DNA from: Spirochaetota bacterium
GTDB lineage: Bacteria; Spirochaetota; UBA4802; UBA5550
Direction: 5' to 3'
NCBI GenBank assembly: GCA_042569985.1
Contig: JBHPHB010000001.1
Span: forward strand, 1,600-65,599
DNA length: 64,000 nt
The notes below the pieces were generated by a model. The model was not told the DNA's origin and made no database searches. It saw only the letters and a program-made list of their open reading frames with translations. The position numbers and the translations under genes are program-made. Positions 3,559-61,576 of this stretch are shown here, one piece after another. Numbering within the stretch: the first letter of the stretch is position 1; each line of letters starts with the position of its first letter.

Positions 3559-3590
3559 AAGGCGATATGATATCATATCGCCTTTTTTTA
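3559..3590 (+). terminator. Rho-independent terminator after the VWA gene
   Basis: Perfect palindrome ggcgatatgat|atcatatcgcc followed by ttttttt. Confidence 0.7.
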
Positions 3591-3803
3591 TCTATTTAAA
3601 GGCTCAAAACCCATCAGGAGTTATTGGGTTGACTGAAAAATATAGTATAAATAAAATAGTTCTTGAAAATCTTCTATAAATTCATAATATATATTTTTTT
3701 ATAAATCTATCTAAAAAAAATTGAACTTATTTTTATTTCTTTGATAATAGTATATAAGATCTGGAATGTTGAATTAAGAATAAATTTAAGGGTTTAAAGT
3801 TAA

Positions 3804-4874: not shown

Positions 4875-4876
4875 TA

Positions 4877-5161: not shown

Positions 5162-5173
5162 GCAAGGTCTATC

Positions 5174-5893: not shown

Positions 5894-5933
5894 AATTTCA
5901 CCTGTTTTTTGTACTGAAGTATTTCAAAAGGCT

Positions 5934-6887: not shown

Positions 6888-7070
6888 TGTATTCTTTTCA
6901 ATTTTTTTATATTTGATTATTCCTCATGGAGCGGGGATGTCAAGCAGTTTTAAAAGTTAAATTAAATACTGGTTAAACAGCTCTTGTATTATTTATTATT
7001 TTTATTAAAAAATGCAAAAAAAAATCAATTTAATTCTCCCTTATTCGTTTATTCAGTAGGGGTATCTTAA

Positions 7071-12201: not shown

Positions 12202-12212
12202 GAAATGCCGGT

Positions 12213-13916: not shown

Positions 13917-14136
13917 TGATATAATGATTATATCAATTTAGCCTTGTTTAAATCAAATTCATAAATAAATATTACAATTTTTGTAAATCTTTTGACCTTT
14001 TCTGTGACAATTTTGCGCAATAAGTATATATTTAAAGTGAAAATCTACCGATAAATATACAAATTAACGTGCTAATCGGTTTATAGACCAAAATATAAAT
14101 CTTGATACTTTAATATCCGTTTATAATAAAACTAAA

Positions 14137-16510: not shown

Positions 16511-16721
16511 TTTCGTATTTTCTATCTTTTTACCCTGTATAATTTTATCCACGTGAAATAATCATACAATTATTATCACTCACATTAATATGAAATAGAT
16601 AAAGAATACTTGACTTTTCCATCTGCAATATGATGTTTTATTATGAAAATTATATAATGCATGTTGAGGAGTAGTTTATTTTATCAATCTCTTCAACTGT
16701 TGATGAATTCCGGAGTCAGGG

Positions 16722-35652: not shown

Positions 35653-36030
35653 TTATACTTCATCCTTTATAGATTCAGTGATGGTTTTCTCAAATTCAAC
35701 TGCAATATAGGAATCTCCCTTTGATATGAATTTAACAAATTTTTGCGCTATTTTAGAGGGGTTGTTTTCTAAAAGCCCCGTTCTTACAATTGATCCCAGC
35801 ACATTGTATTTATTTTTTTTTGTTGAGAATTTTACCCTTACCGGCATGCCGATGGCAACTCTCTTTTTAGAGATAATAAATACACCCCCACGGCTTATAT
35901 CAAGAATGAACCCCTTGCATTTTTCCGGAGTGTCTTTATCGGGATCAATAATTTCAGGATTTCCTTCATAATAGTCGAACTTTGTTTTAATATCACAGCT
36001 GTATCTGGAGTATTTACGTTTTTCCGTCAT
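35653..36030 (-). CDS. PilZ domain c-di-GMP-binding protein
   Basis: RxxxR motif RKYSR near the N-terminus. DxSxGG motif LDISRGGVFI. Confidence 0.7.
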   Translation of the reverse strand: MTEKRKYSRYSCDIKTKFDYYEGNPEIIDPDKDTPEKCKGFILDISRGGVFIISKKRVAIGMPVRVKFSTKKNKYNVLGSIVRTGLLENNPSKIAQKFVKFISKGDSYIAVEFEKTITESIKDEV

Positions 36031-36216: not shown

Positions 36217-37851
36217 ATGAAAAAAAAAGATACCAGAATAATTATAGTGACCGGTGGTGTTTGTTCCTCCCTGGGGAAGGGCATTTCAATTGCTTCGCTG
36301 GGACTCCTCCTTGAAGGCCACGGATATAAAATATCAATTATTAAAATGGATCCATATATTAATATTGATCCAGGGACCATGAGTCCCTACCAGCATGGTG
36401 AAGTATATGTTACTGAGGACGGGGCTGAGACTGACCTTGACCTTGGGTATTACGAAAGATTTACAAATTCAAACCTTACCAGCAGAAATTCAGTATCTAC
36501 TGGTCAAATATATTATTCTGTTATTCTCAGGGAAAGAAAGGGCGATTATCTCGGCAGGACTGTGCAGGTGATACCCCACATAACTAATGAGATAAAAAAA
36601 AGAATTTATGATGTGGCCAATGATGAGGACCTGGATTTTGTTCTTGTAGAGATTGGCGGAACAGTGGGCGATATTGAATCGGTTCCTTTCCTTGAGGCCG
36701 TGAGGCAGATACGTCATGAGCTTGGCAGGGAAAGGGTTATGAATGTACACCTTACGTTAATACCGGTTATAACAGTTGCCGGTGAACAAAAAACCAAACC
36801 CACACAGCACTCTGTAAAGGAATTAATGGAGATTGGTATAATCCCCGATGTTCTTTTATGTAGAACGAGCCTTCCCCTGGCTGATGAATTAAAGAGTAAG
36901 ATCGCACTTTTTTGTAATGTTTCCGAAAAGAACGTCATTTCCGCGGAGGACATTAGCGGTTCAATATATGAAATTCCATATATGTTTCATAAAAATAATT
37001 ATGATAAAATTGTTCTTGAGCACTTCGGGCTCAAAGTTTCAAAATTAAAGCTTCCTGCCTGGGATAAGTTTCTTAAGGCATATCATAATCCCCTTAGAAA
37101 AGTAACAATTGCTGTTGTGGGGAAATATATCTCTCTTCAGGACTCCTACAGGTCCATTTATGAGGCCCTTTTTCACGGGGCCGTGGCTAACAGGGCGGAA
37201 CTTGAGATTGTTAGAATCGATTCTGAGGATATTGAAGGGATGACCCTGGCTAAGTTAAAAAGAAAATTTTCAAATGTTGACGGTGTCCTGGTGCCGGGGG
37301 GATTTGGAGTGCGGGGTATTGAAGGGAAAATTATGGCAATATCCTGTTTAAGAAAAAGCAAAATACCCTTTTTTGGAATCTGTCTCGGTTTGCATTGTGC
37401 TGTCATTGAGTTTGGCCGGAATGTATGCGGCCTTGAAAATGCAAATTCCACTGAATTTGAACCTGAAAATGAAAATCCTGTAATATCCCTCCTTGAAGAA
37501 CAGGAAATAATTGTAGATAAGGGGGGTACAATGAGGCTCGGTGCATTCTTGTGCAAATTTCAGGAGGGTAGTAAAATAAAAAAGATATATAATGTGGCTT
37601 CCGTAAAGGAGAGGCACAGGCATAGATTTGAGTTTACAATGAGGTATAAAGAATTATATGAGAAGAAGGGTATGAACTTTGGGGGGATTTATCCCACAAG
37701 TAATCTAGTTGAGACAATAGAGATTAAGGACCATCCCTGGTTTATAGCAACCCAGTATCATCCGGAATTCAAATCGAAACCTCATAAACCGCATCCCCTG
37801 TTCAGGGATTTTATTAGGGCATCAATTGAATATAGAGAGAAAAAGAAATAA
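36217..37851 (+). CDS. pyrG: CTP synthase
   Basis: N-terminus IIVTGGVCSSLGKG. C-terminal glutamine amidotransferase GICLGLHCAVIE. 544 aa. Confidence 0.95.
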   Translation: MKKKDTRIIIVTGGVCSSLGKGISIASLGLLLEGHGYKISIIKMDPYINIDPGTMSPYQHGEVYVTEDGAETDLDLGYYERFTNSNLTSRNSVSTGQIYYSVILRERKGDYLGRTVQVIPHITNEIKKRIYDVANDEDLDFVLVEIGGTVGDIESVPFLEAVRQIRHELGRERVMNVHLTLIPVITVAGEQKTKPTQHSVKELMEIGIIPDVLLCRTSLPLADELKSKIALFCNVSEKNVISAEDISGSIYEIPYMFHKNNYDKIVLEHFGLKVSKLKLPAWDKFLKAYHNPLRKVTIAVVGKYISLQDSYRSIYEALFHGAVANRAELEIVRIDSEDIEGMTLAKLKRKFSNVDGVLVPGGFGVRGIEGKIMAISCLRKSKIPFFGICLGLHCAVIEFGRNVCGLENANSTEFEPENENPVISLLEEQEIIVDKGGTMRLGAFLCKFQEGSKIKKIYNVASVKERHRHRFEFTMRYKELYEKKGMNFGGIYPTSNLVETIEIKDHPWFIATQYHPEFKSKPHKPHPLFRDFIRASIEYREKKK

Positions 37852-39137
37852 TGGAAGAAAATAATAGTAAAGACTATAATCTTGCCTACTTAGAAAGGCA
37901 AATGCATAATCTTACAAAGCTTGTGGGAATTAATAATATCATTAATTCCACGCTGGATATTAAAAAACTTCTTTCACTGATCATGGAAATAATTAAAGAT
38001 ATTATGGATGCCGAAGCAAGTACCCTGCTTTTATATGATGAGGAATCTGAAGCACTGGTTTTCAAGGTTGCATTGGGAGAAGCCGGGGAGGAACTCCAGG
38101 AGAAATACAGGGTTTCCCTGGGCCAGGGAATTGCAGGCTGGGTTGCACAAAACAGAAAACCGCTCAATGTCCTTGACGCATATACCGATGAGAGGTTTGA
38201 TCCAAATTTTGATAAAAAGACGGGCTTTAAAACCAAATCAATTCTCTGCACGCCACTGCTGTTTAAAGGCAAACTCCTTGGAGTAATACAGGCTATCAAT
38301 TCCATAACAAAACCGCATTTTGATGATGAAGATGTAAATCTTTTTAAAATTTTCAGTAATCAGGCGGCCCTTGCTGTCCAGAATGCCATGTTTTTCCAGA
38401 ATGCCCTGGAAGAAGAGAGGATTAAAATTGAATTGCAGTCGGCAAAATCAATTCATGAATCACTTGTCCCCATTTATGTAAATAAAATAAATAAGATCAA
38501 TATTGCGGCAAAATCTGTTTCGGCAAGAGAAGTGGGAGGTGAGTTTCATGGGGTGTACAAGATCAGCGATGACCATGTTGGTGTAGCTTTAGTGGATATA
38601 CATCAGAAAGGGCTTCCCGGGGGGCTTCAGGCATCAATAATGAGCGGGGCGTTGAGATCATTGGTATGGACAAAAGGTAAAAATCCTTCACACCTTATAA
38701 AAATACTAAACAGGATTATCTCCGATGATCTAAGTTCCATCAGCAATGTGTCTATCTTTTACGGTTTGGTCGACTGCAGTGAAAATACATTGAATTACAT
38801 TAAAGCCGGTGTTGTTTATCCCATTCTTGTGAGAAATAAAGTTGCCAGGTATTTCAGGTTTGACAGCAAATCTTTTGGCACCGAAAGTTCTGGAATAAAA
38901 AAGGTTAAGGTGAAATTACAAGCGGGGGATATGTTTGTAATAATTACTGACGGAATGCTTAATATTAAAAATAGAAATGGTGTGAAGCTTGGTTTAAAAG
39001 ATGTCATGGCCTGCCTTGAAGGTGATTTCAATAAGCCCGAAGAGGTAATAGAAGGGGTGATTGATTATACCGATAATTTTTATAATGGCCTGGAGAAGAG
39101 GGAAGATATCTCAATTGTTGTTTTTAAGGTAGACTGA
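37851..39137 (+). CDS. GAF domain plus PP2C-type (SpoIIE/RsbU family) serine phosphatase
   Basis: GAF-like N-terminal half. PP2C-like C-terminal half with GGEFHGVY...VALVDIHQKGLPGG...FVIITDGML. Start overlaps pyrG stop (taATGg). Confidence 0.7.
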   Translation: MEENNSKDYNLAYLERQMHNLTKLVGINNIINSTLDIKKLLSLIMEIIKDIMDAEASTLLLYDEESEALVFKVALGEAGEELQEKYRVSLGQGIAGWVAQNRKPLNVLDAYTDERFDPNFDKKTGFKTKSILCTPLLFKGKLLGVIQAINSITKPHFDDEDVNLFKIFSNQAALAVQNAMFFQNALEEERIKIELQSAKSIHESLVPIYVNKINKINIAAKSVSAREVGGEFHGVYKISDDHVGVALVDIHQKGLPGGLQASIMSGALRSLVWTKGKNPSHLIKILNRIISDDLSSISNVSIFYGLVDCSENTLNYIKAGVVYPILVRNKVARYFRFDSKSFGTESSGIKKVKVKLQAGDMFVIITDGMLNIKNRNGVKLGLKDVMACLEGDFNKPEEVIEGVIDYTDNFYNGLEKREDISIVVFKVD

Positions 39138-40280: not shown

Positions 40281-41546
40281 TTAGTATTCTCTTTTTATAG
40301 CACAAAAATCCCCGCACATAGAGCACTGGTCATCCTCTCCTGAGGGGCTTTCTTCCCGATAAGATTTTGTCTTTTCAATATCAATTGAAAGTTCAAACAT
40401 TTTTTTCCAATTTCTTTCCTTTCTGGCACGAGACATATCATTGTCCCATTTCATTGCTTTTTTGCCAAGCTTTACTAAATCTGCCGCATGGGCTGCAATT
40501 TTTGATGCTATAACACCCTCCCTGACATCTTCAACTGTGGGTAGCCGTAAATGCTCAGCAGGGGTAACATAACATAAGAAGTCAGCACCGCTTGATGCTG
40601 CAATTGCTCCTCCGATGGCAGACGTAATATGGTCATATCCGGGTGCAATATCAGTAACCAGTGGACCCAGAACATAATACGGGGCTCCATTGCAAAGGTC
40701 TTTCTCAAGTCTAACATTGTCTGCTATCATGTCAAGCTTAACATGCCCCGGGCCTTCAATTATTGCCTGCACATCCCTGTCCCTGGCCCTTTGCGCAAGG
40801 TCTCCCAGGATTATCATTTCATGTATTTGCCCACGGTCACTTGCATCATGAATAGCTCCGGGTCTTAAACCGTCTCCAAGGCTAATGACTATGTTATATT
40901 CTCTTAAAATATCTAAAATCTTATCATAGTGTTCATACAATGGATTTTCTTTATTATTTTTTTTCATCCACTCAGCTAATATTGATCCCCCTCTGCTGGT
41001 GATCCCCACAATCCTTTCCTGGGAATTTAATGATTCGATGGCCTTTACGGTGACTCCAGAATGAATTGTCATGAAATCCACTCCGTCTTCTGCCTGCCGG
41101 ATGATCACTTTAAGGAAATCATCAATTGTCATATCAATCAATGATTTCTTTTTATTCATCATGTCCAACGCCACTTCGTACAGGGGAACCGTGCCAAGGG
41201 GGACACTTGAATTCTCAAGAATTTCTTTTCTGAAATGGGATACATTGCCCCCAATGCTGAGGTCCATAATGGTATCTGCACCCGCTTTTATTGCAACATT
41301 CAGCTTTTCGAGCTCAACATCCAGGTCAAAGAGGTCGGGAGATGATCCGATATTAGCATTAATCTTGGTGCGAAGCCCTCTGCCAATGGCGACAGGATTG
41401 ATATCTCTCCTATTGTTCCTAAATACTGCAATTTCACCCTTAGCGAAATACTCAAGAAGTTCTTCCATGGGTATCTCTTCAACTTTCGAAATATATTCAA
41501 GTTCGGTAGTAACAGTATTGTCTTTTGCTTTTTTGAAAATATTCAT
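40281..41546 (-). CDS. thiC: Phosphomethylpyrimidine synthase
   Basis: C-terminal radical-SAM-type CSMCGDFCAIK motif and conserved ThiC core. Confidence 0.9.
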   Translation of the reverse strand: MNIFKKAKDNTVTTELEYISKVEEIPMEELLEYFAKGEIAVFRNNRRDINPVAIGRGLRTKINANIGSSPDLFDLDVELEKLNVAIKAGADTIMDLSIGGNVSHFRKEILENSSVPLGTVPLYEVALDMMNKKKSLIDMTIDDFLKVIIRQAEDGVDFMTIHSGVTVKAIESLNSQERIVGITSRGGSILAEWMKKNNKENPLYEHYDKILDILREYNIVISLGDGLRPGAIHDASDRGQIHEMIILGDLAQRARDRDVQAIIEGPGHVKLDMIADNVRLEKDLCNGAPYYVLGPLVTDIAPGYDHITSAIGGAIAASSGADFLCYVTPAEHLRLPTVEDVREGVIASKIAAHAADLVKLGKKAMKWDNDMSRARKERNWKKMFELSIDIEKTKSYREESPSGEDDQCSMCGDFCAIKREY

Positions 41547-44570: not shown

Positions 44571-45344
44571 ATGAAAGAAAAATATAAGAAAATTGTTTTA
44601 TTATTATCCATCTTTTTTGTTGTAATTTACAGTGAGCTTAAATCTCAGGAGAGCAGAAAAGTTGAAATTACTGCGCAGGGGATTTTGGCAAGAGTTGACC
44701 GGGTAATGGAGTATCCCCGTGGTGAAATTAAGGGTATTATTAAACATATAATGCCCGACGGGAAATCCTTTTCCATATATTTTAAAGGATGCATCACAAA
44801 GGAAGATTTTTTATTTATATTCAGAAGTAAGACGAGGGGGATGCAGCTTAAAGTCCTCTATAATTTAAGCGGTGAAGAAATATGGGTATTTAATATTCTA
44901 TCCATTAAGCTGTATAATAAAAAGGGAATTGATAAATACGATTCGATTTTAGGGACTAACTTTTTCTACATTGATCTTTCAAATGCCGATTTGCAAAGCA
45001 ACTATACAGCTTCAATTGTTGGTTCTGCCATTGTAAAGGGGTTTGACGCTTACAAACTAAAGCTGAAACCAATTTTTAAAGCAGGGCTGTATGGCTCTCT
45101 CACCCTTTATGTAAAAAAAGATAATTATATTCCACTGCAGATCGATTTTCACGATCGGGATAATGCTTTATTTAAATTTATGACAATTGCCAAGGTTAGA
45201 AAGCGCGGGAAAAGGGTAATTCCCATAAGGTACGACATGATGCATCTTAGAAGGGGAACCGTTACCATCCTCAACTTTTTCAGTTTCGATGAAGACGTAA
45301 AATTCGAAAAAGAAATATTTCGATCTGAAAAACTTGGCGGTTAA
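44571..45344 (+). CDS. Secreted LolA-like / outer-membrane lipoprotein-sorting-family protein, hypothetical
   Basis: Signal peptide. ~250 aa size/pattern. Low-confidence fold guess. Confidence 0.35.
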   Translation: MKEKYKKIVLLLSIFFVVIYSELKSQESRKVEITAQGILARVDRVMEYPRGEIKGIIKHIMPDGKSFSIYFKGCITKEDFLFIFRSKTRGMQLKVLYNLSGEEIWVFNILSIKLYNKKGIDKYDSILGTNFFYIDLSNADLQSNYTASIVGSAIVKGFDAYKLKLKPIFKAGLYGSLTLYVKKDNYIPLQIDFHDRDNALFKFMTIAKVRKRGKRVIPIRYDMMHLRRGTVTILNFFSFDEDVKFEKEIFRSEKLGG

Positions 45345-46125
45345 TCAAATGCCTCAATACTTTATTAATTCTTCCGGTATAAAAGATAACAAGTGCGTGA
45401 TTGAGGGCGATGATTATCACCATCTGGCCAGGGTAAGGCGTATAAAAAAAAATGATTCCATTCAGCTTAGAGATGAAAGGGGCATTTTGATTAATGCCAG
45501 GATCAGTAATATCACCCCCGCGGCTATTGAGCTTGAGATTCTTGATAAAGTATCAAATACTCAAATGCCAATTGATTTAAATCTATGCACCTGTTTAATA
45601 AAGGGAAAGAAATTTGATATAGTTGTGCAGAAGGCCGTTGAAATTGGCGTAAATTGCCTTATGCCGATTATTTCTGAAAGAACCATTCGCATACCGGAGA
45701 AGAATATAGCCACTAAGGTTAACAGGTGGAGGCGTATTGCCGCAGATGCCGCAAAACAGTGCCTTCGGGAAAATCTTCCTGTTGTTAAAGATATTCATTC
45801 TTTTGAGAATTTAATTGATTCAGATTATCCCGGTTTAAAGTTAATTGCCCATCCCGGAGGTGAAGATGAAAATAGTGATTTTCCCGGTGAATCTATGCGT
45901 AATTATATAATGAATAATAGCAGAAATGCCGGCGAAATCGACAGTGTCTATCTTCTTACGGGCCCCGAAGGGGGTTTTAGTGATGTGGAGCTTGAAAAAG
46001 CATGCAAAAAGGGGTGGTTAAAGTTCAGCTTTGGCTTTACCCAGTTAAGGGCTGAAACAGCTGCAATTGCTTTCTCGTCAATAATTATCTATGAGTGGAT
46101 GAAAATCAAGGGGGAGGTTAAATGA
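45334..46125 (+). CDS. rsmE: 16S rRNA (uracil1498-N3)-methyltransferase
   Basis: N-terminal PUA-like start MPQYFINSSGI...GDDYHHLARVRRIKKNDSIQL. C-terminal SPOUT knot. Confidence 0.8.
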   Translation: MAVNQMPQYFINSSGIKDNKCVIEGDDYHHLARVRRIKKNDSIQLRDERGILINARISNITPAAIELEILDKVSNTQMPIDLNLCTCLIKGKKFDIVVQKAVEIGVNCLMPIISERTIRIPEKNIATKVNRWRRIAADAAKQCLRENLPVVKDIHSFENLIDSDYPGLKLIAHPGGEDENSDFPGESMRNYIMNNSRNAGEIDSVYLLTGPEGGFSDVELEKACKKGWLKFSFGFTQLRAETAAIAFSSIIIYEWMKIKGEVK

Positions 46126-46319
46126 ATATAAGGCTAAATGGGGAGGATGTTGATTTTAACGGATCAAATGTTCATGATGTCATAATTTTTTATAAGCTGA
46201 AACCTGAAAGTGTTGTTGTTGAAAAGAACGGGGAAATAGTCCACCGGGAAAAATATGCCGAAGAAAATATAAAAGACGGGGATGTTATCGAAATTGTGAG
46301 GTTTGTTGGCGGCGGATAA
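46122..46319 (+). CDS. thiS: ThiS/MoaD-family sulfur carrier protein
   Basis: 65 aa ending GGG. Overlaps rsmE stop by 4 nt. Confidence 0.6.
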   Translation: MNIRLNGEDVDFNGSNVHDVIIFYKLKPESVVVEKNGEIVHREKYAEENIKDGDVIEIVRFVGGG

Positions 46320-46332: not shown

Positions 46333-46719
46333 TTATTCAATTAAAAAGCTGAAGAAGTTTAATACTTCCGTTTCGGAGTGAAGAATCTTGATAAAGTTCT
46401 GCAGTTTGACAATTTTAAAAATATCTTTAATTTGAGACGGAACATCGAGAAAGGCAATTTCACCTTTATTGGCCCTTATTATTTTTGCTGTTTTTATAAA
46501 TGCGCCAATACCGGAACTGTCAATGTATTCCATTTCTTTCATGTCCACAATGATTTTTAATGCGCCTCCATTGATGAGAGTGTTTATGAAATGTATAATG
46601 TAATTTATATTACTCCCATCAACACCCTTTTTAAGGCATATTCTAAAAATAATATGATTGAAATTCAATGAGTCATCGGCAAGGGGATTGATTTTGATTA
46701 TATCACAGTGGACATCCAT
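46333..46719 (-). CDS. STAS-domain anti-sigma-factor antagonist (SpoIIAA/RsbV-like), paralog 4 of 4
   Basis: DMKEMEYIDSSGIGAFIKTAK. Conserved phosphorylatable Ser context DSSG. Confidence 0.75.
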   Translation of the reverse strand: MDVHCDIIKINPLADDSLNFNHIIFRICLKKGVDGSNINYIIHFINTLINGGALKIIVDMKEMEYIDSSGIGAFIKTAKIIRANKGEIAFLDVPSQIKDIFKIVKLQNFIKILHSETEVLNFFSFLIE

Positions 46720-46762
46720 TTATTAATCCTGTTGAAAATTATAAAATATATTTGGAACATTA

Positions 46763-47137
46763 TCATACATTAAGTTTAAGAAATTTTATCGCCTCTTCCT
46801 CTGATTCAAAGATTTGGATAAACCTTTGAAGGTTTACTGGCCTGAATATATTAAGAATGTTTTCGGGAACCCTGATTAATCCGATATCTCCTTTTTTTGT
46901 CCTTAACAATTTTGCGGAATTTATCAGCATGCCTATGCCCTGGCTGTCGATAAAATCTAAATTATTCATATCTATGATTATTTTATTGAGCCCGCCGTCT
47001 ATTAATGTTTTCAGGATTTTCCAGAGGTTATTTGTTTCATCTCTATCAATAACATCGGCTGCTTTTACTTTTAAGATGACGGAGTCATGTTCGATCTTTT
47101 CCTCATTCCTTGATGTTTGCAATATCGTGAAGTTCAT
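46763..47137 (-). CDS. STAS-domain anti-sigma-factor antagonist, paralog 3 of 4
   Basis: DMNNLDFIDSQGIGMLINSAK. RVPENILNIFRPVNLQRF. Confidence 0.75.
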   Translation of the reverse strand: MNFTILQTSRNEEKIEHDSVILKVKAADVIDRDETNNLWKILKTLIDGGLNKIIIDMNNLDFIDSQGIGMLINSAKLLRTKKGDIGLIRVPENILNIFRPVNLQRFIQIFESEEEAIKFLKLNV

Positions 47138-47179
47138 ATTAATTTATTATAAAATGAGAATATATAATCTCCCTTGTAT

Positions 47180-47560
47180 TTAATAATTATATAAAAATTC
47201 CAATGCTTCATTTTCTTTATCAAATATTTTTATAAAATTTTGAAGGTTAATAATCTTAAGTACATGTTTTATTTCATGGGGTACATTCATTATAACCAGC
47301 GTGCCGGAATTATCATTTAACTGCTTTGCTGTGTTTATTAGAATCCCAATGCCGGAACTGCTAATGTATTCTAAGTTTTCCATGTCTACAAGTATTTTTT
47401 TTGCCCCACCGCTAATTAATATATCCATGAACAATGACAGGTTATGGGAATTATCAATATTAATTTCATCGTACAACAGGGCCTTGAATATTATTTTGCT
47501 ATAATCAAAAATATCACTTTTTACCGTGGCCTCACATATTGTGTCAAAAGCTATTTTCAT
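47180..47560 (-). CDS. STAS-domain anti-sigma-factor antagonist, paralog 2 of 4
   Basis: DMENLEYISSSGIGILINTAK. NVPHEIKHVLKIINLQNF. Confidence 0.75.
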   Translation of the reverse strand: MKIAFDTICEATVKSDIFDYSKIIFKALLYDEINIDNSHNLSLFMDILISGGAKKILVDMENLEYISSSGIGILINTAKQLNDNSGTLVIMNVPHEIKHVLKIINLQNFIKIFDKENEALEFLYNY

Positions 47561-47594
47561 TAAAACCTCGTAATATTAGTATAAGTTATAATGG

Positions 47595-47966
47595 CTAAAA
47601 GTATAACGGTATATCCTCTTCCGATTTCAAAATCTTAACCAATTTCTGGAGATTAACTGTTTTAAAAATATTTTCAATATCTTCGGGAAGGTTAATTATG
47701 GCTGTATTCCCGCCTTCCTGATTCAGGGATTTTGCCGTATTGAATAGTACTGCTATTCCCGAACTGTCAATATATTCAAGGTCCATCATATCATATACAA
47801 TATATTTTATACCCCCTTTTATGGTGGTTGATAAGAAAATCCAGAGGTCCTTTGATGTATCAAAATCTAATACGCCTTTCAATTCGATTTTCATTACTAT
47901 TGTATCAAAATCAATCTCGTGGGTTAACCTGGGAGAGAGTTTTATGATCTTGCATATACTTTCCAT
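47595..47966 (-). CDS. STAS-domain anti-sigma-factor antagonist, paralog 1 of 4
   Basis: DMMDLEYIDSSGIAVLFNTAK. NLPEDIENIFKTVNLQKL. Confidence 0.75.
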   Translation of the reverse strand: MESICKIIKLSPRLTHEIDFDTIVMKIELKGVLDFDTSKDLWIFLSTTIKGGIKYIVYDMMDLEYIDSSGIAVLFNTAKSLNQEGGNTAIINLPEDIENIFKTVNLQKLVKILKSEEDIPLYF

Positions 47967-48076
47967 TATAATCCCTTTTTGAAAATATTAAGTAACATCC
48001 TGTTGATATACCACTTATAGTAATAGTAATTTAAATTCAATATAGATTTATCATTGAGCCAAAAAAAATATCATTT

Positions 48077-50836
48077 TTAAAAATTAAAATCCACAACGAC
48101 CATTGTAATGTCATCCTCCAATCCTTTTTTATTGTTAATTCCAGACCATTCTTTCACTGTATCTATGGATTTTTCCGTAAATTTTTCACAACTTAGATCG
48201 TGACTATTTAGAATTAAATTTTTAAAATTTTTATTACCGAACATTTCCCCCTTTTCATCCTTCGTTTCAAGTATCCCGTCTGTATACATTACAAAACGGT
48301 CCCCTTCTTCCAGGTCAAATTCATTAGTAGGAAAATTCTCTTCAGCCATCCAGCCAAAGGGCATGCCGTTATTTTCATTAAAAATTATTTCATTGTTCTT
48401 TTTTTTGTATAGAAGTGACGGCCAGTGTCCCGCGTTTGCCTGGTATAATTTTTTTTCTTCCAGGTCTATATATGCATAACATGCGGTGATAAATTGCCCT
48501 GATGTATGATTGAACATTGTCGCATTAATTTTAGACATGAGAACATCGGGCTTATCAGCATCTTCAAGAAAAAATGTGAATGTAACTCTCAACATGGCAC
48601 AAATAATTGCCGCCGGTATGCCGTGCCCGGATACATCGGCAATGAGAATGCCAACCTTTTTGTCGTCAATAACCTGGATGTCATAATAATCACCGCCAAG
48701 TTCAAACATTGGCTCATACTGAACTGATATTGCAAAATTTTTCCCCTGGGGAATATCCTTTAGTATTATACTGTCCTGGATCTCATGGGCTATATGAAGG
48801 TCCCTTTTCAGTGATGATAATTCATCGTGAATCTTAACTGAGTCTTTTAGCGATATTAAGTTGTTAACCCTGGCGATTAGCTCCATTTTGCTAACAGGTT
48901 TTGTAACATAATCATTAGCTCCGGCATCAATACCCGCGGCAATATCAGCGGGTTTGTTTTTCGCTGTGAGCATCAGTATGGGTAATTCATACTGAGAATA
49001 GGTTTTCCTCAATGTTGAACAGAGTTCATAACCTGACATTCTCGGGAGCATTACATCAAGGATGAGCAGGTTGGGCAATGCGTTTTCTTCAAATATTTGT
49101 AAAACCTCTGAGCCAGTTGTTGCCGTTATCACCTCATATCCCTCCAATGTGAGGTGATTCAATATAACCTTTATGTTGATGGGTTCGTCATCCACAACAA
49201 CGATCCTTTTCCCATTGAAGTTTTTAGGAGTATTGGCAACTTCAAAAATGGTTGAAGTATCCCTGTCTATTTTGTCAAGGTAATCTGTATTTATTTCAAG
49301 TGTGTTTTTAATATTTAAAACCAGTTGTTTTTCCTTTGATTCATTCAGGGAAAATGAAAAGCAGCTGCCCCTGCCGGGTGATGATTCAACCCATATTTCC
49401 CCTCCATGGAGCTCTACCAGTTTTTTTGCAATTGTAAGGCCCAGTCCTGTGCCTCCAAACTTTCTGGTTGCTGACCCGTCTACCTGCTCAAAGAGGTTGA
49501 ATACGCTTTTGATCTTTTCGGGGTGTATTCCCATTCCTGTATCTTTAACATTTATTATGATTTTATCATTAACGTGATCCTTTTGGGATGATATTTCAAT
49601 GCTGCCAGTTTCGGTAAATTTAACGGCATTGCTTAAAAGGTTCAGCATTATCTGCTGCAGCCTTATCTCATCTCCAAGAATGAATACTGATTCCGGATTT
49701 ATTTTATTCTTGATTTCGATGTTTTTGTTTTTCAGCAGGGGACTTATGATGGACATGATGTATTGTGTTATTGAATACATATCCACGGTTGACATGTTTA
49801 ATTTTATGTCATAATGCTTTAACTTAGAAAAATCCAGTATATCATTAATCAGTCCCGTTAGCTGTTTGCCGCTTTTTTTGATAAGTGATAAATTAAGTAT
49901 TGTCTCCACGTTAAGGCTTCCCGAAACACCCTCCAGGAGAGATTCGGTGAGCCCTATCATGCCGTATAGGGGAGTCCTGAATTCATGTGAAATGGTGGCA
50001 AGAAATTCATCCTTGAGGTTGTCAATCCTTCTGAGTTCCCTGTTGTTGTCCTGGAGCGCGCCAATTTCAAGTTTTATTACTTCCGCCAGGTGGTTAAATG
50101 TTCTGGCAAGCTTACCAAGTTCATCCTTTGAGCTGACGGGAATCCTGTAATTCAAGTCCCCGCTTCCGATTTCTTCCGCCCCGATTATTAACCTGTCAAT
50201 GGGTTTTGATATGAAACGGCTGAATACAAGGCCAATTATGATTGCAATAAGAATTGCTGAGAAAATTGATATGTATATAATATTCCTCAGTTTATTAATT
50301 GGTGAAAGTAGAATTGACTTGGAAAATATCAGCCTGCCCATGCAGTATGTTTTCCGCTGCAGGATTGCCCCCCGGGATATTATTTCATAGTAGGTATCAT
50401 CTATTTCGGGGACTTTAATTTCTCTAACCATATCGTTTTTAAAATTGCTGTCATATTTATGAGAAAGAATTAACTTCAGGGTGTCCGGGTTACTCTCAAT
50501 TATTTTATTTGTATAACTGGAAATTATTATACCATTGTACTTCTCATTAGGTGATATAAGGGTTGTATCAGCATAAAGCAGGCCCGTTTCTTTAAGAGGT
50601 TTAAGGATCGATAACATCTCTTTTGAGTCAATGCGTGTTGCCGTAATGCTTCCTCCGTTCATTATAAGAAGGTTTAAGGTGGACATTGCAAGAATTTTAC
50701 TGTTGATAATCCCCTGGTTTGTAAGAAGATCAATTTTTTCACTCTCCTGAATTTTGAGGATAAAAAACGAAATGGGCAGAGAGGCAATTAGTATTATTGA
50801 TATTAGCAGTAATATTAGTTTATATTTTATCTTCAT
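48077..50836 (-). CDS. Hybrid sensor histidine kinase - receiver - PP2C (SpoIIE/RsbU-type) phosphatase
   Basis: TM and periplasmic region, second TM, HAMP-like linker. H-box ATISHEFRTPL. HATPase GGTGLGLTIAKKLVELHGG. Receiver KRIVVVDDEP...LDVMLP...LMLTAK. PP2C GGDYYDI...ADVSGHGIPAA...MYTDGILE. Confidence 0.8.
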   Translation of the reverse strand: MKIKYKLILLLISIILIASLPISFFILKIQESEKIDLLTNQGIINSKILAMSTLNLLIMNGGSITATRIDSKEMLSILKPLKETGLLYADTTLISPNEKYNGIIISSYTNKIIESNPDTLKLILSHKYDSNFKNDMVREIKVPEIDDTYYEIISRGAILQRKTYCMGRLIFSKSILLSPINKLRNIIYISIFSAILIAIIIGLVFSRFISKPIDRLIIGAEEIGSGDLNYRIPVSSKDELGKLARTFNHLAEVIKLEIGALQDNNRELRRIDNLKDEFLATISHEFRTPLYGMIGLTESLLEGVSGSLNVETILNLSLIKKSGKQLTGLINDILDFSKLKHYDIKLNMSTVDMYSITQYIMSIISPLLKNKNIEIKNKINPESVFILGDEIRLQQIMLNLLSNAVKFTETGSIEISSQKDHVNDKIIINVKDTGMGIHPEKIKSVFNLFEQVDGSATRKFGGTGLGLTIAKKLVELHGGEIWVESSPGRGSCFSFSLNESKEKQLVLNIKNTLEINTDYLDKIDRDTSTIFEVANTPKNFNGKRIVVVDDEPINIKVILNHLTLEGYEVITATTGSEVLQIFEENALPNLLILDVMLPRMSGYELCSTLRKTYSQYELPILMLTAKNKPADIAAGIDAGANDYVTKPVSKMELIARVNNLISLKDSVKIHDELSSLKRDLHIAHEIQDSIILKDIPQGKNFAISVQYEPMFELGGDYYDIQVIDDKKVGILIADVSGHGIPAAIICAMLRVTFTFFLEDADKPDVLMSKINATMFNHTSGQFITACYAYIDLEEKKLYQANAGHWPSLLYKKKNNEIIFNENNGMPFGWMAEENFPTNEFDLEEGDRFVMYTDGILETKDEKGEMFGNKNFKNLILNSHDLSCEKFTEKSIDTVKEWSGINNKKGLEDDITMVVVDFNF

Positions 50837-50845
50837 AGAAGATAC

Positions 50846-51958
50846 CTATTCCAATTCACGCAGGGCGGTGAGCCGTTTTTTTGCCCGTGGTAAATATGCC
50901 CTGGCAATTTTATTTGCCGGGTCGATTATAAGAATACGTTTCATAATATTAATGCACTGTTCATATTTCTTTTTTTCGTAGGCCGAAATACCCTCTTTTT
51001 TTAAACCGGTGATTAATGATGTGAGTTTCTTTCTTAATTTTCTAAGCTTTTCTCTTGATGAGGCCATGTATTTGCCCGATTTTTCAAGAAGTACCATTGC
51101 AGAGAAATATCTTTTCTTTTTTATCTCCAGTAGAGCGCTATTATGGATTTTTTCATTCTTTTGTATAACGAGAAGATTCTTTTTTGCGTCAACATGGTTA
51201 TTGTCGATTGAGATCACTTTTTTGAAGTGTTGTTTCGCCAATTTTGTATTTCCTTCTTTAAATTCACCCATGCCAAGTTCATAGTATTTTTTTGATTCAT
51301 CTATTTTTTTTAACCTGGCTGAATCATCGAGTTTTTTCATTTTGATAAAACCCAGCTTTCTGCCCCTCCTGACATAGGCCCGGTAATTAAATGAAACGCC
51401 AATAAGAATATTTAAAGTATGGAATGGTTTGTCCGACATCCAGACTGCCGAATAGGAAAGGCCGATCCTTGTCCTCACACCACTGGCAATGGGTATAAAA
51501 AATCCACCATCAGCGCCGAGTCCCACTTTGAAGGAATGATCCTGCCTGTCGGTCTTCTCTGCATCTGCATACAGGTAATTACCTTTAAATGATATTCCAA
51601 TGTAGGGTTCTAAAAAGGGCAGCAGGGGATAGTAGGCTAAAATACCTATGCTGAATAATAATGAATGAAAGTAGGAATCATCACTAACACTGAATTTGTA
51701 TGGAGAATAGAATATATCGGCTTCAACCATGAGAAAATTATGAATGTATGGAATGCAATATATTCCCACATTTGTTGTTCCCATCAGTTCAGAATCATAA
51801 TGGCCGAATATTTTGGAGTATCCGCCTTTTAACCCGAGAATGTAATCGCTTTTCCTGGTGTTTTCATACTGGGAGAAACCGGGCACAGAGGAGAATAGGA
51901 GGATTATAATAATTGCAAAGGATAGTGCTGGCCAGTTTAATGTTTTTTTAGAATACAT
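50846..51958 (-). CDS. Secreted beta-rich N-domain plus TPR-like C-domain protein, hypothetical
   Basis: Signal peptide. N-terminal half has amphipathic beta pattern. C-terminal half helical repeats (AKQHFKKVISIDNNHVDAKKNL...). Confidence 0.4.
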   Translation of the reverse strand: MYSKKTLNWPALSFAIIIILLFSSVPGFSQYENTRKSDYILGLKGGYSKIFGHYDSELMGTTNVGIYCIPYIHNFLMVEADIFYSPYKFSVSDDSYFHSLLFSIGILAYYPLLPFLEPYIGISFKGNYLYADAEKTDRQDHSFKVGLGADGGFFIPIASGVRTRIGLSYSAVWMSDKPFHTLNILIGVSFNYRAYVRRGRKLGFIKMKKLDDSARLKKIDESKKYYELGMGEFKEGNTKLAKQHFKKVISIDNNHVDAKKNLLVIQKNEKIHNSALLEIKKKRYFSAMVLLEKSGKYMASSREKLRKLRKKLTSLITGLKKEGISAYEKKKYEQCINIMKRILIIDPANKIARAYLPRAKKRLTALRELE

Positions 51959-52434
51959 ATCTCATATCTTCTGAATTATATATTTCATAAAATTTAAGTT
52001 AAATTCATTTTATGTCAAATTCCCCATTGTACACCCATGAAGGGGAATGAAAAATAATCATTTCATCACTTTCGTAACATTACTTTTTGCATTTTAAATC
52101 GGAATTATTATTTGAAGTTTTTCTTAGAGTATACTTAAACACAATGTACTGACAATTATGATAAATTTCAATTGTTTTTTAAATTTGACTAAAAAAATAT
52201 GTATACTCAAGTTGAACCAGATGGGTGATTTAATTTTTATTCGGTATCATTACTTCAAGTGAAAAATCCATCTTTTTCGAAGAGCATTTAAATTCATAAT
52301 TTAAAATAATTGCATAAAATATTTTTTACACAGAAAATTATGTTTTTCAGTTGAAATATTTTATACGAAGGATATAAATGTAAAAGTTATATTTCCAAAA
52401 AATGGGAATATTTCATTTATTAAGGAGTAAATTT

Positions 52435-53400
52435 ATGAAAAAAATTCGTTTCTTTTCCATTATCTCCTGCATTTTGATTATGAGCCCTGTCATTGCCAAT
52501 GCAAAGATGAGAATAGCAATTATCGACCTGAAGCCGGACGGGGTTTCACAGAGAACAGCACGGACGACAACAAACATGATAAGAACTGAACTTATTAATA
52601 TGGGTAGGTTCACAGTTGTTGAAAGGTCACGCATGGATGCAATTCTAAAGGAGCAGGGATTCCAGAAAACCGGTTGTACAGATGCATCATGCGCCGTTGA
52701 AGTGGGTAAACTTATTTCGGCAAGGAAGATGCTTGTCGGTGATATAAGTAAGATGGGCAAGGCCATAATTATTTCTGTGAGGATTGTTGATGTTGAAAAA
52801 GGTGTTTCCGAATATGCTGCTACCCAGAAGGCTATTTCTCTGGATGTCGTTGATGAGGCAGTAAGAAAAATTACAAAGAAGCTTGCATACAGGATCAGTA
52901 AGAGCGGAAAGATTAAAGAAATAAAAGAAGTAGAAGATGAAAAAGACGAGCCCGTAGTTGTTTCAAAAACAGGTTACTATCTCAGGGGCATTGTCCCCGG
53001 GTGGGGGCAAATCTATTCGGGACATACCCTTAAAGGCTCCCTGGTGCTTGGAGGCTTTGTTGTCTCTGGAGGATTGATGGGATGGACAATGTATAATTAT
53101 TTCGATAAAAAGAAAAAATACGACGATGCATGGAACCTGTCAGAGAATGAATTCGACAGCCTTTATGATGATTACAAAACCGCTGAGATAATAAATTTGA
53201 CAATGTTGTCTTTAACTGTTGCAATCTATATTTACAACTGGATCGACCTTATCTTCTTTAACAATGTGGAATACGGCAAAACAATTGCCAATGAGGCACA
53301 GAAGAAAGACAGGTTTTTCTATTCACTCAATATATATGATGTTCAGAATGAGGACAGTATAGAGATGAGGATAGATTTAAATTTCGGTATGCGCTTTTAG
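52435..53400 (+). CDS. CsgG-like periplasmic domain protein with C-terminal TM region
   Basis: ATG at 52435 preferred (aaggag RBS). Signal peptide. CsgG-family-like block MRIAIIDLKP...IRTELINMGRFTVVERSRMDAILKEQ...VGKLISARKMLVGDI. C-terminal TM LVLGGFVVSGGLMGWTMY. Confidence 0.45.
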   Translation: MKKIRFFSIISCILIMSPVIANAKMRIAIIDLKPDGVSQRTARTTTNMIRTELINMGRFTVVERSRMDAILKEQGFQKTGCTDASCAVEVGKLISARKMLVGDISKMGKAIIISVRIVDVEKGVSEYAATQKAISLDVVDEAVRKITKKLAYRISKSGKIKEIKEVEDEKDEPVVVSKTGYYLRGIVPGWGQIYSGHTLKGSLVLGGFVVSGGLMGWTMYNYFDKKKKYDDAWNLSENEFDSLYDDYKTAEIINLTMLSLTVAIYIYNWIDLIFFNNVEYGKTIANEAQKKDRFFYSLNIYDVQNEDSIEMRIDLNFGMRF

Positions 53401-53444
53401 TGGATGAAGATTATTAAATGCATGCAGAAAAAAAGGAGGCAAAT

Positions 53445-54833
53445 ATGAAAAGCAATAATAAATATATAATATTTACAGTAATAATTTTATCGGTTGTTTT
53501 CCTTAGTACATTGGGATGCGGCCTAATAGCAGACAGGAATAATTATTCCGATCCCGGCAGCAGTAATTACTCATTTCAAAATCCACAGGAAATTGAATAT
53601 AATAATGACGGCAATGCAACGAATCCCAATGTGGCAATGGATTCAAACGGTAATGCAATCGCTTCATGGTGCCAGGAAGATATTGACGGCGATGCATATT
53701 TCTATGTCAACAGGTACACGCCTGCAAACGAATGGGAAGGCGTAACGGAAATTTCCTGGATTCACCCGTCATTGAGCCTTTACCCGCCATACATTGCATT
53801 TGATCCAATAGGAAATGCCGTCGTGGTGTGGAACCAGAACGAAAGTCCCACTGGGAATGCTCATGATGTATACTCTGTGAGGTATAATTATAATCTTGAT
53901 GATTGGGAAGGTTTGTTTATGCACGATACTCAAACCAACAATGCATACCCCGCGAAGGCAGAGTTTCTGCCTGACGGTGATATCTTTTTGATCTGGACAC
54001 AGTCAGACGATGCCTGTGCAACAAGTAGTGTCTGGTCCACCACATATAGTTCAACCGGTCAAAACTGGGGTCCTGTATATTTAAATGAAGTTGATAATAC
54101 CAGTTTGTACTCGTCCAGATCTAATATGGATATAAATCCAGCCGGAGACATAGCTGTGGTATGGCGCCAGGGGCTTCCGGACAGGGAAATTTACGGCAGG
54201 ATAAGAGATAGTAATACTACCTGGGGGGCTCCTGTAAAACTTTCGGTGGATTCAAATGTTACTCACTGGCCCCAGGTGGCAATGGACAATAACGGCTATG
54301 CAATTGCCGTATGGATTCAGTCCGATTCTCTTCCAAGTGATGGTTTGTGGTCATCATTATATCATGCCTTGGATGAGGAATGGAAACCCCCTGTTAAAAT
54401 TTCCAATCCATCAGCTATTGTTCCTTCTGGTGACCCGCCCAGGATTGCAATGAATCCGGACGGCATGGCAATAGTGGTATGGCTTGAAGAAGAGGCAACC
54501 TATGACCATGTATGGGCAAATTATTACAATGCGGGGTGGTCAGGCCCGGTTAGGGTTGAGCAGCCTTCAAATTATTATTCTGAAACTCCCGAAGTGGCAA
54601 TTAATAACACCGGTGTTGCTGCCGTTGTATGGTCTAAATGGGATGATACAAGCAGGAATATATGGATGAACTGGTATGTTTCTTCCGTTTTTGTAGGGGC
54701 TTATACTATTGATGATTCTGGGGAGTTTGATGCAGTTAAACCAAAGATTGCAATGGATCCAAGCGGTTTTACTATTACCGTGTGGCAGCAATGGGACGGC
54801 TTTGTAAACAGTACCTGGGCATACAAGGAGTAA
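53445..54833 (+). CDS. Lipoprotein with eight ~45-aa G-x-A-[IV]-[AV]-V-W-x-Q repeats (predicted beta-propeller-like)
   Basis: aaggagg RBS before ATG 53445. Lipobox LSTLGCG. Repeats GNAIASWCQ, GNAVVVWNQ, GDIFLIWTQ, GDIAVVWRQ, GYAIAVWIQ, GMAIVVWLE, GVAAVVWSK, GFTITVWQQ, each followed ~20 aa later by a W-x-x-P-V motif. Confidence 0.55.
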   Translation: MKSNNKYIIFTVIILSVVFLSTLGCGLIADRNNYSDPGSSNYSFQNPQEIEYNNDGNATNPNVAMDSNGNAIASWCQEDIDGDAYFYVNRYTPANEWEGVTEISWIHPSLSLYPPYIAFDPIGNAVVVWNQNESPTGNAHDVYSVRYNYNLDDWEGLFMHDTQTNNAYPAKAEFLPDGDIFLIWTQSDDACATSSVWSTTYSSTGQNWGPVYLNEVDNTSLYSSRSNMDINPAGDIAVVWRQGLPDREIYGRIRDSNTTWGAPVKLSVDSNVTHWPQVAMDNNGYAIAVWIQSDSLPSDGLWSSLYHALDEEWKPPVKISNPSAIVPSGDPPRIAMNPDGMAIVVWLEEEATYDHVWANYYNAGWSGPVRVEQPSNYYSETPEVAINNTGVAAVVWSKWDDTSRNIWMNWYVSSVFVGAYTIDDSGEFDAVKPKIAMDPSGFTITVWQQWDGFVNSTWAYKE

Positions 54834-60517: not shown

Positions 60518-61576
60518 ATGCAGGTTTTTCATATGAATAACAAGATCTATGCTGCCATTGATGCAAATATTAACAGGGCCATGGAGGGGCTTCGTGTGTG
60601 CGAGGATGTTCTAAGGTTTATTTTGCTTTCTCCATATTCCCATGAAATAAAAGAGGTGAGGCATGAAGTCAGGAAAAGCTGCCGGGTTTTTCCTGCTGAA
60701 ATGCTTCTGCGGGCGAGGGATGTTAATGGAGATTCTCAAAAATTCTTTGACCTGGATGATGAACTCAGGCGAACTTCTGTTTCTCATATTTTCAGTGCCA
60801 ACCTTCACCGTTCCATAGAGGCAGTTCGGGCCCTGGAAGAATTTGCCAAGAACATTAATGAAACTTCAAGCCAGGATTTGCAAAAGATAAGGTTTTTATT
60901 ATATGATATTGAGAAGAAAGTGCAGCTTAATCTAAATAAATCGGAATGGCTTGATAAGTTTAGCAACTCCCTCTATGCAATATTGGATTCTTCTTTCGTT
61001 GAAAAGGATGATTATTCCGGTGCCGCAAAGAAAATGATAGAGGGCGGAGCGTTAATCATACAATTGAGGATGAAAGGGGAACCGCGTAAGAAGGTTTTGC
61101 AAACTGCAAAAGAGATTTCATTACTCTGCATGGAACATAAAAGGATATTCATTGTGAATGATCATCCCGACATTGCACTCCTTTCCGGTGCCCGGGGGCT
61201 TCACCTGGGGCAGGATGATATTTCTGTTGATGAGGCAAAGAAAATAATGCCCCAGGATATGATTATTGGCAAATCAACACATTCATACGAAGAGGCAATT
61301 GATGCGGTAAAGGAAGGGCCTGATTATATAGCCATTGGTCCGGTATACAGCACAAAGAGTAAAAATGGAAAAGAGATAGGCGGAATTGGAACTGAAGTCC
61401 TGGGGAAAATAATGGAAACTGTTGAAGTCCCCACGGTGGCAATTGGAGGAATTACTTTAAAGGGAACCGGTGATATTAAGAAAAGGGGATGCACCTGTAT
61501 TGCTGTTATCTCAGAACTTTATATAAATGGAAAAATTAAAGAGAACTGCTGTGAATTGGTTAAGGCAATAGGATAG
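60518..61576 (+). CDS. thiE: Thiamine-phosphate synthase with ~140-aa N-terminal extension of unknown function
   Basis: C-terminal ~210 aa: YAILDSS...IIQLRMKG...FIVNDHPDIALLSGARGLHLGQDD...IIGKSTHS...IAIGPVYSTKSK...VAIGGI (ThiE TIM-barrel motifs). N-terminal 140 aa unassigned. Confidence 0.7.
   Translation: MQVFHMNNKIYAAIDANINRAMEGLRVCEDVLRFILLSPYSHEIKEVRHEVRKSCRVFPAEMLLRARDVNGDSQKFFDLDDELRRTSVSHIFSANLHRSIEAVRALEEFAKNINETSSQDLQKIRFLLYDIEKKVQLNLNKSEWLDKFSNSLYAILDSSFVEKDDYSGAAKKMIEGGALIIQLRMKGEPRKKVLQTAKEISLLCMEHKRIFIVNDHPDIALLSGARGLHLGQDDISVDEAKKIMPQDMIIGKSTHSYEEAIDAVKEGPDYIAIGPVYSTKSKNGKEIGGIGTEVLGKIMETVEVPTVAIGGITLKGTGDIKKRGCTCIAVISELYINGKIKENCCELVKAIG

Follow-up and report, generated by a model that had tools for sequence, protein, structure and literature searches.

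A spirochaete hybrid kinase-phosphatase and its four STAS neighbours: a conserved locus that probably forms the input half of a partner-switching system

A 64-kb stretch of Spirochaetota DNA (64,000 nt, referred to as the window) was analysed around a minus-strand locus in which a 919-aa hybrid sensor kinase-phosphatase gene is followed by four STAS genes. The locus is best described as a real, intact and conserved module, an uncharacterised variant of partner switching and not a new kind of system. It is probably the input-and-antagonist half of a partner-switching system, wired to a two-component sensor. What the analysis shows is the gene content, that catalytic and phospho-acceptor residues are intact, how the proteins are predicted to fold, and that the linkage of a barrel/TPR gene, the kinase-phosphatase and the STAS genes is conserved. 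Coordinates are positions in the window, and strands are given relative to it. Six open reading frames (ORFs) in one orientation lie within 46333-51958 (minus strand); they are listed below with two domains of the 919-aa protein.

50846-51958, minus strand: barrel/TPR gene, 370 aa, with a predicted signal peptide, a β-barrel (~39-192) and a tetratricopeptide repeat (TPR)-like helical domain (~211-369).
48077-50836, minus strand: hybrid sensor kinase-PP2C, 919 aa, assigned by Pfam, hydropathy and AlphaFold2 (AF2).
50282-50755, minus strand: periplasmic sensor domain of the 919-aa protein, residues ~28-185, from AF2 secondary structure.
48086-48667, minus strand: SpoIIE/RsbU-type PP2C (PPM) domain, residues 724-917, PF07228 E 6.1e-47 with the full profile covered.
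47595-47966, minus strand: STAS 1, 123 aa, B-type-like, motif IDSSGIA, PF01740 3.5e-15, TIGR00377 61.2 bits.
47180-47560, minus strand: STAS 2, 126 aa, B-type, motif ISSSGIG, PF01740 1.1e-14, TIGR00377 64.8 bits.
46763-47137, minus strand: STAS 3, 124 aa, A-type, motif IDSQGIG, PF01740 1.7e-13, TIGR00377 53.8 bits.
46333-46719, minus strand: STAS 4, 128 aa, B-type, motif IDSSGIG, PF01740 8.2e-13, TIGR00377 51.8 bits.

Profile searches recovered the domains that an initial annotation of this DNA had assigned, including STAS (PF01740) and SpoIIE (PF07228), and the five ORFs concerned (the kinase-phosphatase and the four STAS genes) were found intact on the minus strand at exactly the positions it gave. 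The 919-aa protein matched HAMP (2.6e-16), HisKA (3.8e-16), HATPase_c (1.7e-31), Response_reg (9.2e-28) and SpoIIE (6.1e-47). Hydropathy gave two membrane segments around a periplasmic stretch of ~155 residues. The residue layout is transmembrane segment (TM) 1 at ~5-27, periplasmic domain at ~28-185, TM2 at ~186-208, HAMP at 205-253, HisKA at 275-340, HATPase_c at 388-499, receiver (REC) at 545-657 and SpoIIE/PP2C at 724-917. The phospho-acceptor of HisKA is His284, which was kept in 90 of 94 orthologues. The N and G1 boxes of HATPase_c (Asn403; DxGxG at 432-436) were invariant or nearly so in the 94 orthologues, as were receiver Asp549/550 and PP2C Asp716, Gly737-His738 and Asp908. Receiver Asp594, Thr624 and Lys646 and PP2C Asp734, Asp853 and Asp909 were invariant or nearly invariant in an alignment of 59 sequences. 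The protein has all the parts of a hybrid sensor histidine kinase, namely a dimerization and histidine phosphotransfer (DHp) domain with its H-box histidine, the N and G boxes, and a receiver with an acidic pocket and the Asp/Thr/Lys set. Its phosphatase belongs to the SpoIIE/RsbU family, with PF07228 matched over the full profile and an intact metal-binding set (Asp716, Asp734, Gly-His-Gly 737-739, Asp853, Asp908/909). No histidine phosphotransfer (HPt) domain (PF01627) was matched by Pfam in the 919-aa protein or among the window ORFs, so the receiver would be the terminal step of a single His-to-Asp transfer. The built-in phosphorelay of the initial annotation stands as a hybrid kinase with one such transfer and falls as a multi-step relay.

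The full-length AF2 model of the 919-aa protein was built on the 59-sequence alignment and had a predicted local distance difference test score (pLDDT) of 81. HAMP, DHp and catalytic domains were followed by a disordered linker (507-540) and the receiver domain, and a continuous helix (650-690) ran from REC into PP2C. Foldseek superposed the REC-linker-PP2C unit on P. aeruginosa RssB (3eq2/3f7a) over ~395 columns, matched the RssB PP2C domain (3f79) with a target TM-score (TMt) of 0.79, and found the kinase core to resemble HK853, WalK, ShkA and RetS. RssB (3eq2/3es2) was likewise the best phmmer match in the PDB (E ~1e-13 to 3e-14), followed by Rv1364c, SiaA and SpoIIE. A crossing helical linker that passes the state of the N-terminal domain to a PPM dimer has been proposed for RsbU, RssB and receiver-PP2C proteins (PMC12143880). 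The long helical linker between receiver and PP2C is present here too; unlike in the RsbY/RssB/HenR type, the unit is fused to its own kinase.

Both sequence and fold place RssB nearest among solved structures. The REC-PP2C part could serve chiefly as an adaptor through which a regulator is degraded or sequestered, the STAS proteins being obligatory co-factors and not its substrates. RssB is encoded in an operon with a STAS gene, rssC, and requires RssC for its adaptor function (PMC12143880). Such a role is nevertheless highly improbable for the 919-aa protein, which is membrane-anchored and has no known candidate client; the metal-binding residues of its PP2C, invariant in the orthologues examined, argue for catalysis.

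The four STAS proteins matched PF01740 with E values of 8e-13 to 3.5e-15. All four also matched the NCBIfam model TIGR00377 ‘anti-sigma factor antagonist’; STAS 1, 2 and 3 exceeded its curated threshold of 53.45 bits and STAS 4 fell just short of it. Four neighbouring STAS matches of this strength are not a product of chance. Each gene encodes a single-domain STAS antagonist with a D-S-x-G serine. The motifs read in the initial annotation (DSSGIG, DSQGIG, SSSGIG, DSSGIA) were all present and share the form D/S-S-x-G-I-G/A, and the serine aligned with SpoIIAA Ser58 was invariant (4/4); the Ser58 equivalence was set by manual count along the B. subtilis SpoIIAA sequence. The codon of Ser68 in STAS 1 is at 47763-47765. 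The closest PDB structures were TM1081 and TM1442 (Thermotoga) and SpoIIAA, and the best matches of STAS 2 were the same three. A sequence search with one STAS protein gave 6 matches.

All-against-all alignment of the four paralogues gave pairwise identities of 35-40%, frameshifts and internal stops were absent, and orthologues in other genomes were 43-52% identical. Recent duplication and pseudogenes, the latter named in the initial annotation as a possible objection, were rejected on the low mutual identity and the presence of orthologues elsewhere. The proteins were typed using identity matrices and a bootstrapped distance analysis (200 replicates), where type A is the first gene and type B the second gene in the STAS pairs of relatives. 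STAS 1 was closest to second-position STAS proteins (43% to L083_2) and nearer B in 178 of 200 replicates. STAS 2 (52% to L083_2) and STAS 4 (50% to L083_2) were nearer B in 197 and 195 of 200, respectively. STAS 3 was 46-49% identical to L118_1, L117_1, L083_1, L119_1 and L088_1, and was nearer A in 176 of 200. By these sequence comparisons the array is an old A/B pair with B expanded to three copies, in a gene order unlike that of relatives. The four-fold tandem duplication that had been proposed gives way to one A-type and three B-type members of this pair, relatives having two to three copies.

The STAS proteins could instead work independently of serine phosphorylation, as a stressosome-like scaffold of the RsbR/RsbS type or as MlaB-type subunits. 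Several STAS paralogues side by side recall RsbR paralogues, and weak MlaB matches were seen, none scoring over 30 bits where the models require 90. The best matches, however, were anti-sigma antagonist families, TM1081, TM1442 and SpoIIAA; the phospho-serine is invariant and the linkage to PP2C conserved; and the window contains no RsbT-like kinase, RsbR-type N-terminal domain or MlaFED genes. We consider a scaffold of this kind extremely improbable. The stressosome itself was rejected on the single-domain size of the STAS proteins (123-128 aa) and the absence from the window of an RsbT-like protein or an RsbRD_N domain, and MlaB-type subunits were rejected on the sub-threshold scores and the better antagonist matches.

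The kinase-phosphatase (P0001) is annotated at NCBI as ‘SpoIIE family protein phosphatase’ and its STAS neighbours are auto-annotated as ‘STAS domain-containing protein’; the module family is already present in automatic annotation. Metagenomes yielded about 94 full-length relatives from uncultured Spirochaetota, 38-51% identical and all sharing the same five-domain architecture. Other sensors (7TMR-DISM, dCache, Reg_prop) are also fused to HisKA-HATPase-REC-SpoIIE (P0096-P0107), so the fused output architecture is not unique to this family. Genome contigs scanned with the 919-aa protein gave generic hybrid kinases only, at 46% identity or less. Gene neighbourhoods were compared in the window and 15 related loci with flanks of 8-10 kb. 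A metagenome scan by a short N-terminal pattern yielded at least five usable loci (L089, L090, L092, L094 and partial L091/L093). Flanks permitted a count in 15 family loci, 12 of which had one to four STAS genes within 3 kb of the kinase-phosphatase gene; the flank of L090 was too short. STAS copy number ranged from 0 to 4 and was usually 2. The loci with STAS genes are grouped below by copy number.

Four STAS genes beside the kinase-phosphatase: the window only.
Three STAS genes: L086.
Two STAS genes: L081, L083, L084, L088, L117, L118 (upstream) and L119.
One STAS gene, shorter (107 aa) and upstream: L085, L087 and L092, a paralogous sub-clade.

The window array is the largest in the sample but continues a theme of two to three copies. 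The conserved upstream barrel/TPR gene, the membership of the module in a conserved family and the copy number of 0-4 were not part of the initial annotation. In L118 the STAS pair is located upstream of the barrel/TPR and kinase-phosphatase genes, with an fn3-like gene between; features were recorded there at 4925-5769 (+) and 16218-17711 (+), and another SpoIIE protein is encoded 5 kb downstream. L119 encodes a second 919-aa HisKA-HATPase-REC-SpoIIE protein, without HAMP, at 11821-14580 (-); its gene converges on the two STAS genes, and the two kinase-phosphatases of this locus may have common STAS clients. An ORF-poor stretch without called genes (~2000-7500) beside the paralogous kinase-phosphatase locus in L085 is probably an rRNA operon.

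The 370-aa barrel/TPR gene ends 9 nt before the start codon of the kinase-phosphatase. Its only Pfam match was TPR_2, in the C-terminal part. The AF2 model showed a signal peptide, eight β-strands and then a helical repeat domain, and Foldseek matched the barrel to the OmpA TM domain, NspA (TMt 0.82), OmpX, Ail and the OprF N-domain. Sequence search with the protein gave 3 matches. Homologues were detected by phmmer directly upstream of the orthologous kinase in L082, L086, L088, L089, L090 and L094, and a gene of similar size occupied the same position in L117 (no Pfam match), L118 (weak OMP_b-brl) and L119 (faint TPR_2). Synteny was counted in 10 of 16 loci, including the window, with weaker support in L117, L118 and L119. 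The protein is likely the envelope-side partner of the sensor. On the evidence of synteny and predicted fold, an envelope-state input is suggested by a protein that would be anchored in the outer membrane, with its TPR arm in the periplasm, and whose gene adjoins that of a sensor kinase with a periplasmic domain of its own. A gene of ~320-350 aa precedes the barrel/TPR gene in L086, L088, L118 and L119, though not in the window; it is fn3-like by weak or faint matches in L088 and L118 and had no Pfam match in L086 and L119.

No Pfam family was matched by the periplasmic sensor domain. Its AF2 topology is one long helix followed by five β-strands, with pLDDT mostly 77-91 and falling to 66-73 near residues 111-130, and the domain looks PDC/Cache-like by this modelled topology. 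Residues 1-205 (50222-50836, minus strand) matched only 70 of 1.84 billion cluster representatives. Full-length members of those 70 are ~880-930 aa, and the shorter ones resemble contig fragments. Given so few matches, the sensor appears, on sequence, to occur almost only in this kinase-phosphatase family.

From barrel/TPR through kinase-phosphatase to STAS 1-4, the gaps are 9, 110, 34, 42 and 43 nt. A divergent gene that starts at 52402 borders the run upstream, and downstream a convergent 65-aa thiS-like ORF (46122-46319) faces STAS 4, the final gene of the run. With all six genes on one strand, gaps of this size, and neighbours that diverge from the run upstream and converge on it downstream, the layout is consistent with a single transcription unit.

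Pfam was run on the 57 ORFs of at least 90 aa in the whole window. Sigma factors (Sigma70/Sigma54), HATPase_c_2 kinases and HPt domains were matched by 0 of the 57, and the gene tables of the 15 related loci listed no sigma factor. The statement in the initial annotation that no sigma factor or RsbW-type kinase is encoded in cis is borne out for the 64-kb window and extends to the 15 related loci. A local search for RsbW-like kinases, seeded with B. subtilis SpoIIAB and RsbW, gave only weak matches to ordinary histidine kinases and is of lead quality, the Pfam scan of the window ORFs being the more solid test. The locus has the PP2C and the STAS serine of a partner-switching system, and the kinase and the target were not found in cis. 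Partner-switching genes are often dispersed. Since non-sigma outputs and unlinked STAS kinases are both documented, the absence of a sigma factor and kinase in cis says little in favour of an unusual output. Non-canonical outputs such as the one that had been proposed are already documented for STAS proteins, and in-cis absence alone does not imply one here.

The missing kinase might be supplied by the 919-aa protein itself. In a self-contained switch of the SypE/HsbR style, its own GHKL ATPase would phosphorylate the STAS serine besides or instead of acting as a histidine kinase, PP2C would reverse this, the receiver would toggle between the two, and a separate RsbW would be unnecessary. RsbW-type kinases and the catalytic domains of histidine kinases have a common GHKL fold, which counts in favour of this arrangement, as does the lack of a separate STAS kinase in the window or the 15 related loci. 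The order ATPase-REC-PP2C also parallels SypE, an RsbW-like kinase-REC-PP2C protein (PMC8256260, PMC10120452). However, the ATPase follows a canonical HisKA, in which 90 of 94 orthologues retain the H-box histidine; the ATPase scores as HATPase_c (1.7e-31) and matches WalK-, BarA- and TorS-type models; and an RsbW-like serine kinase domain (HATPase_c_2 without HisKA), as in the SypE/HsbR/CrsR type, was not found in the 919-aa polypeptide. No canonical HisKA-type kinase is known to phosphorylate a STAS serine, which also counts against a self-contained switch. With precedent for unlinked STAS kinases in addition (PMC13555669), the self-contained switch is very unlikely.

A different output is unlikely yet deserves more weight. 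The STAS proteins may be direct effectors on non-sigma targets (a diguanylate cyclase, a glycosyltransferase, polysaccharide or biofilm genes, motility), each paralogue with a target of its own, making the locus a hub with one sensor and many outputs. Non-sigma outputs are known for SypA, BtrV, RbaV and HmpV (PMC8256260), HsbA also binds FlgM (PMC6482189), a STAS-glycosyltransferase occurs in Anabaena (PMC13555669), and SiaC-SiaD is a further case as cited in PMC9239204. The two STAS types diverged long ago and are conserved, a sigma factor was found in none of the 16 loci, and genes related to cyclic di-GMP (c-di-GMP) occur in the window (PilZ, HD + PilZ, HDOD), none of them adjacent. On the other side, absence of a sigma factor in cis counts for little, partner-switching genes often being dispersed. 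Upstream of the STAS proteins this proposal is compatible with an input-and-antagonist half-system and differs from it in output alone.

For that half-system, which we prefer, we infer the direction of control, the role of the STAS proteins as PP2C substrates, a kinase in trans, and the nature of the signal and output from the features above. An envelope signal would be sensed by the family-specific periplasmic domain, probably with participation of the barrel/TPR protein, and would set autophosphorylation of His284. The phosphoryl group would then be transferred within the dimer to the protein's own receiver at Asp594 as the end point. By analogy with RsbY, HsbR, SypE and P. aeruginosa RssB, the phosphorylated receiver would switch on PP2C via the 40-residue helical linker, and PP2C would dephosphorylate the conserved serine of the four STAS proteins. 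Unphosphorylated STAS proteins would bind RsbW-type serine kinases/anti-sigma factors or other targets encoded elsewhere, releasing or activating outputs. Two old STAS types, one of them tripled, would probably provide several targets or graded thresholds from one sensor. The general idea of the initial annotation, a two-component-controlled PP2C acting on several STAS proteins, fits this evidence, and the branched partner-switching network that it described is plausible.

Several observations weigh against this reading. No serine kinase that would phosphorylate STAS proteins was found in the 64-kb window or the 15 related loci, so that STAS phosphorylation is assumed. The sign of control by the receiver is argued by analogy only. 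The pairing with STAS genes is not obligatory, L082, L089 and L094 having none. The AF2 model of the barrel/TPR protein was built on 3 sequences and reached a pLDDT of 71.8. Consensus scans of the window for promoters and terminators gave about what is expected of shuffled sequence in this AT-rich DNA (~36% G+C), and operon boundaries are not derivable from them.

In a more far-reaching proposal, the locus would be a complete, dedicated envelope-to-cytoplasm device of an as yet uncharacterised kind. The barrel/TPR protein would report the state of the outer membrane or periplasm to a private sensor, the kinase-receiver-PP2C chain would set the phosphorylation of two long-diverged STAS types, one of them in three copies here, and these would be direct, sigma-independent effectors on different targets. 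We hold this to be unlikely. Taken further still, the ATPase domain of the 919-aa protein would double as the STAS kinase.

Among known systems, the closest in logic is B. cereus RsbK-RsbY-RsbV, which activates SigB through a hybrid kinase, a REC-PP2C protein and a STAS antagonist (PMC4574943, PMC9912610). In the spirochaete locus, by contrast, kinase, receiver and PP2C are one membrane polypeptide, there are four STAS proteins and not one, rsbW and sigB are absent in cis, a barrel/TPR gene is attached, and the host is a diderm. P. aeruginosa RssB (PA2798) and RssC are similar in that a REC-helical linker-PP2C protein is encoded next to a STAS gene (PMC12143880), whereas RssB is a soluble response regulator phosphorylated by a kinase on another polypeptide, serves as an RpoS adaptor and has one STAS partner. 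Receiver phosphorylation also sets the STAS state through a fused PP2C in HptB-HsbR-HsbA (Pseudomonas), CrsR-CrsA (Shewanella) and SypE-SypA (Vibrio fischeri), and outputs of this type may be non-canonical, such as FlgM binding and biofilm control (PMC6482189, PMC8256260). Those proteins carry an RsbW-like serine kinase domain and no HisKA, while the 919-aa protein carries HisKA/HATPase_c and no recognisable serine kinase domain.

Anabaena HenR and the STAS domain of All4160 constitute another phosphatase-STAS system resembling partner switching, with a non-sigma output and with STAS kinases (Alr3423 and All2284) whose genes lie at separate loci (PMC13555669); there the STAS domain is fused to a glycosyltransferase and is a single client. 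More than one STAS antagonist per switch is found in Chlamydia RsbU-RsbV1/RsbV2-RsbW, where RsbU is a sensor phosphatase, and in M. smegmatis RsfA/RsfB/RsbW3 (PMC11619594, PMC10950880). In both, unlike here, the antagonists do not form a tandem array beside the phosphatase and a kinase/anti-sigma partner is known; chlamydial RsbU, moreover, lacks histidine kinase and receiver domains. A search of open-access papers found no description of a HisKA-HATPase-REC-SpoIIE fusion with this architecture or of tandem STAS arrays.

Partner-switching modules are among the least understood of the abundant signalling devices outside Firmicutes. To our knowledge, the targets of anti-sigma factors and antagonists in spirochaetes are largely unknown. 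Spirochaetes such as Leptospira encode many of both (PMC3953431). The present family offers a compact linked set of a candidate outer-membrane partner, a kinase-receiver-phosphatase chain and two to four client STAS proteins. It is suited to asking how two-component phosphorylation gates a PPM phosphatase through a helical linker, how a single phosphatase tells paralogous STAS substrates apart, and what STAS proteins do without a nearby anti-sigma kinase. No concept is overturned: each part comes from a known family, and there are precedents for kinases encoded elsewhere as well as for non-sigma outputs.

The genes flanking the module on one side are of housekeeping or envelope type (thiC, EPSP synthase, chorismate mutase, a LolA-like protein and rsmE). 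On the other side are a CsgG/LpoB-like lipoprotein and then a protein without an assigned family. The latter two, of 332 and 471 aa respectively, are encoded by the divergent pair at 52402-54833 (+); the 471-aa protein matched no Pfam family, and homologues of either were not found among the 15 related loci. The 444-nt intergenic region between the pair and the module may contain the promoters of both. Rfam and tRNA scans of the window gave no matches, and no thiamine pyrophosphate (TPP) riboswitch reached the Rfam gathering score in the window. The 65-aa ORF at 46122-46319 (+) ends in ...VGGG, resembles a ThiS-type sulfur carrier and overlaps the end of rsmE (45334-46125) by 4 nt. Thiamine genes are dispersed over the window, with thiC at 40281-41546 and ThiD2/TMP-TENI at 60518-61576.

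Proteins of families linked to c-di-GMP are encoded at 3804-4874 (+, HD + PilZ), 10723-12201 (+, HDOD) and 35653-36030 (-, stand-alone PilZ). They are possible downstream players, and none adjoins the module. A second PP2C, a 428-aa GAF + SpoIIE protein, is encoded 9 kb away at 37851-39137 (+), and the start of its gene overlaps the stop of the CTP synthase gene (36217-37851). This phosphatase could have the four STAS proteins of the module, or different ones, as substrates.

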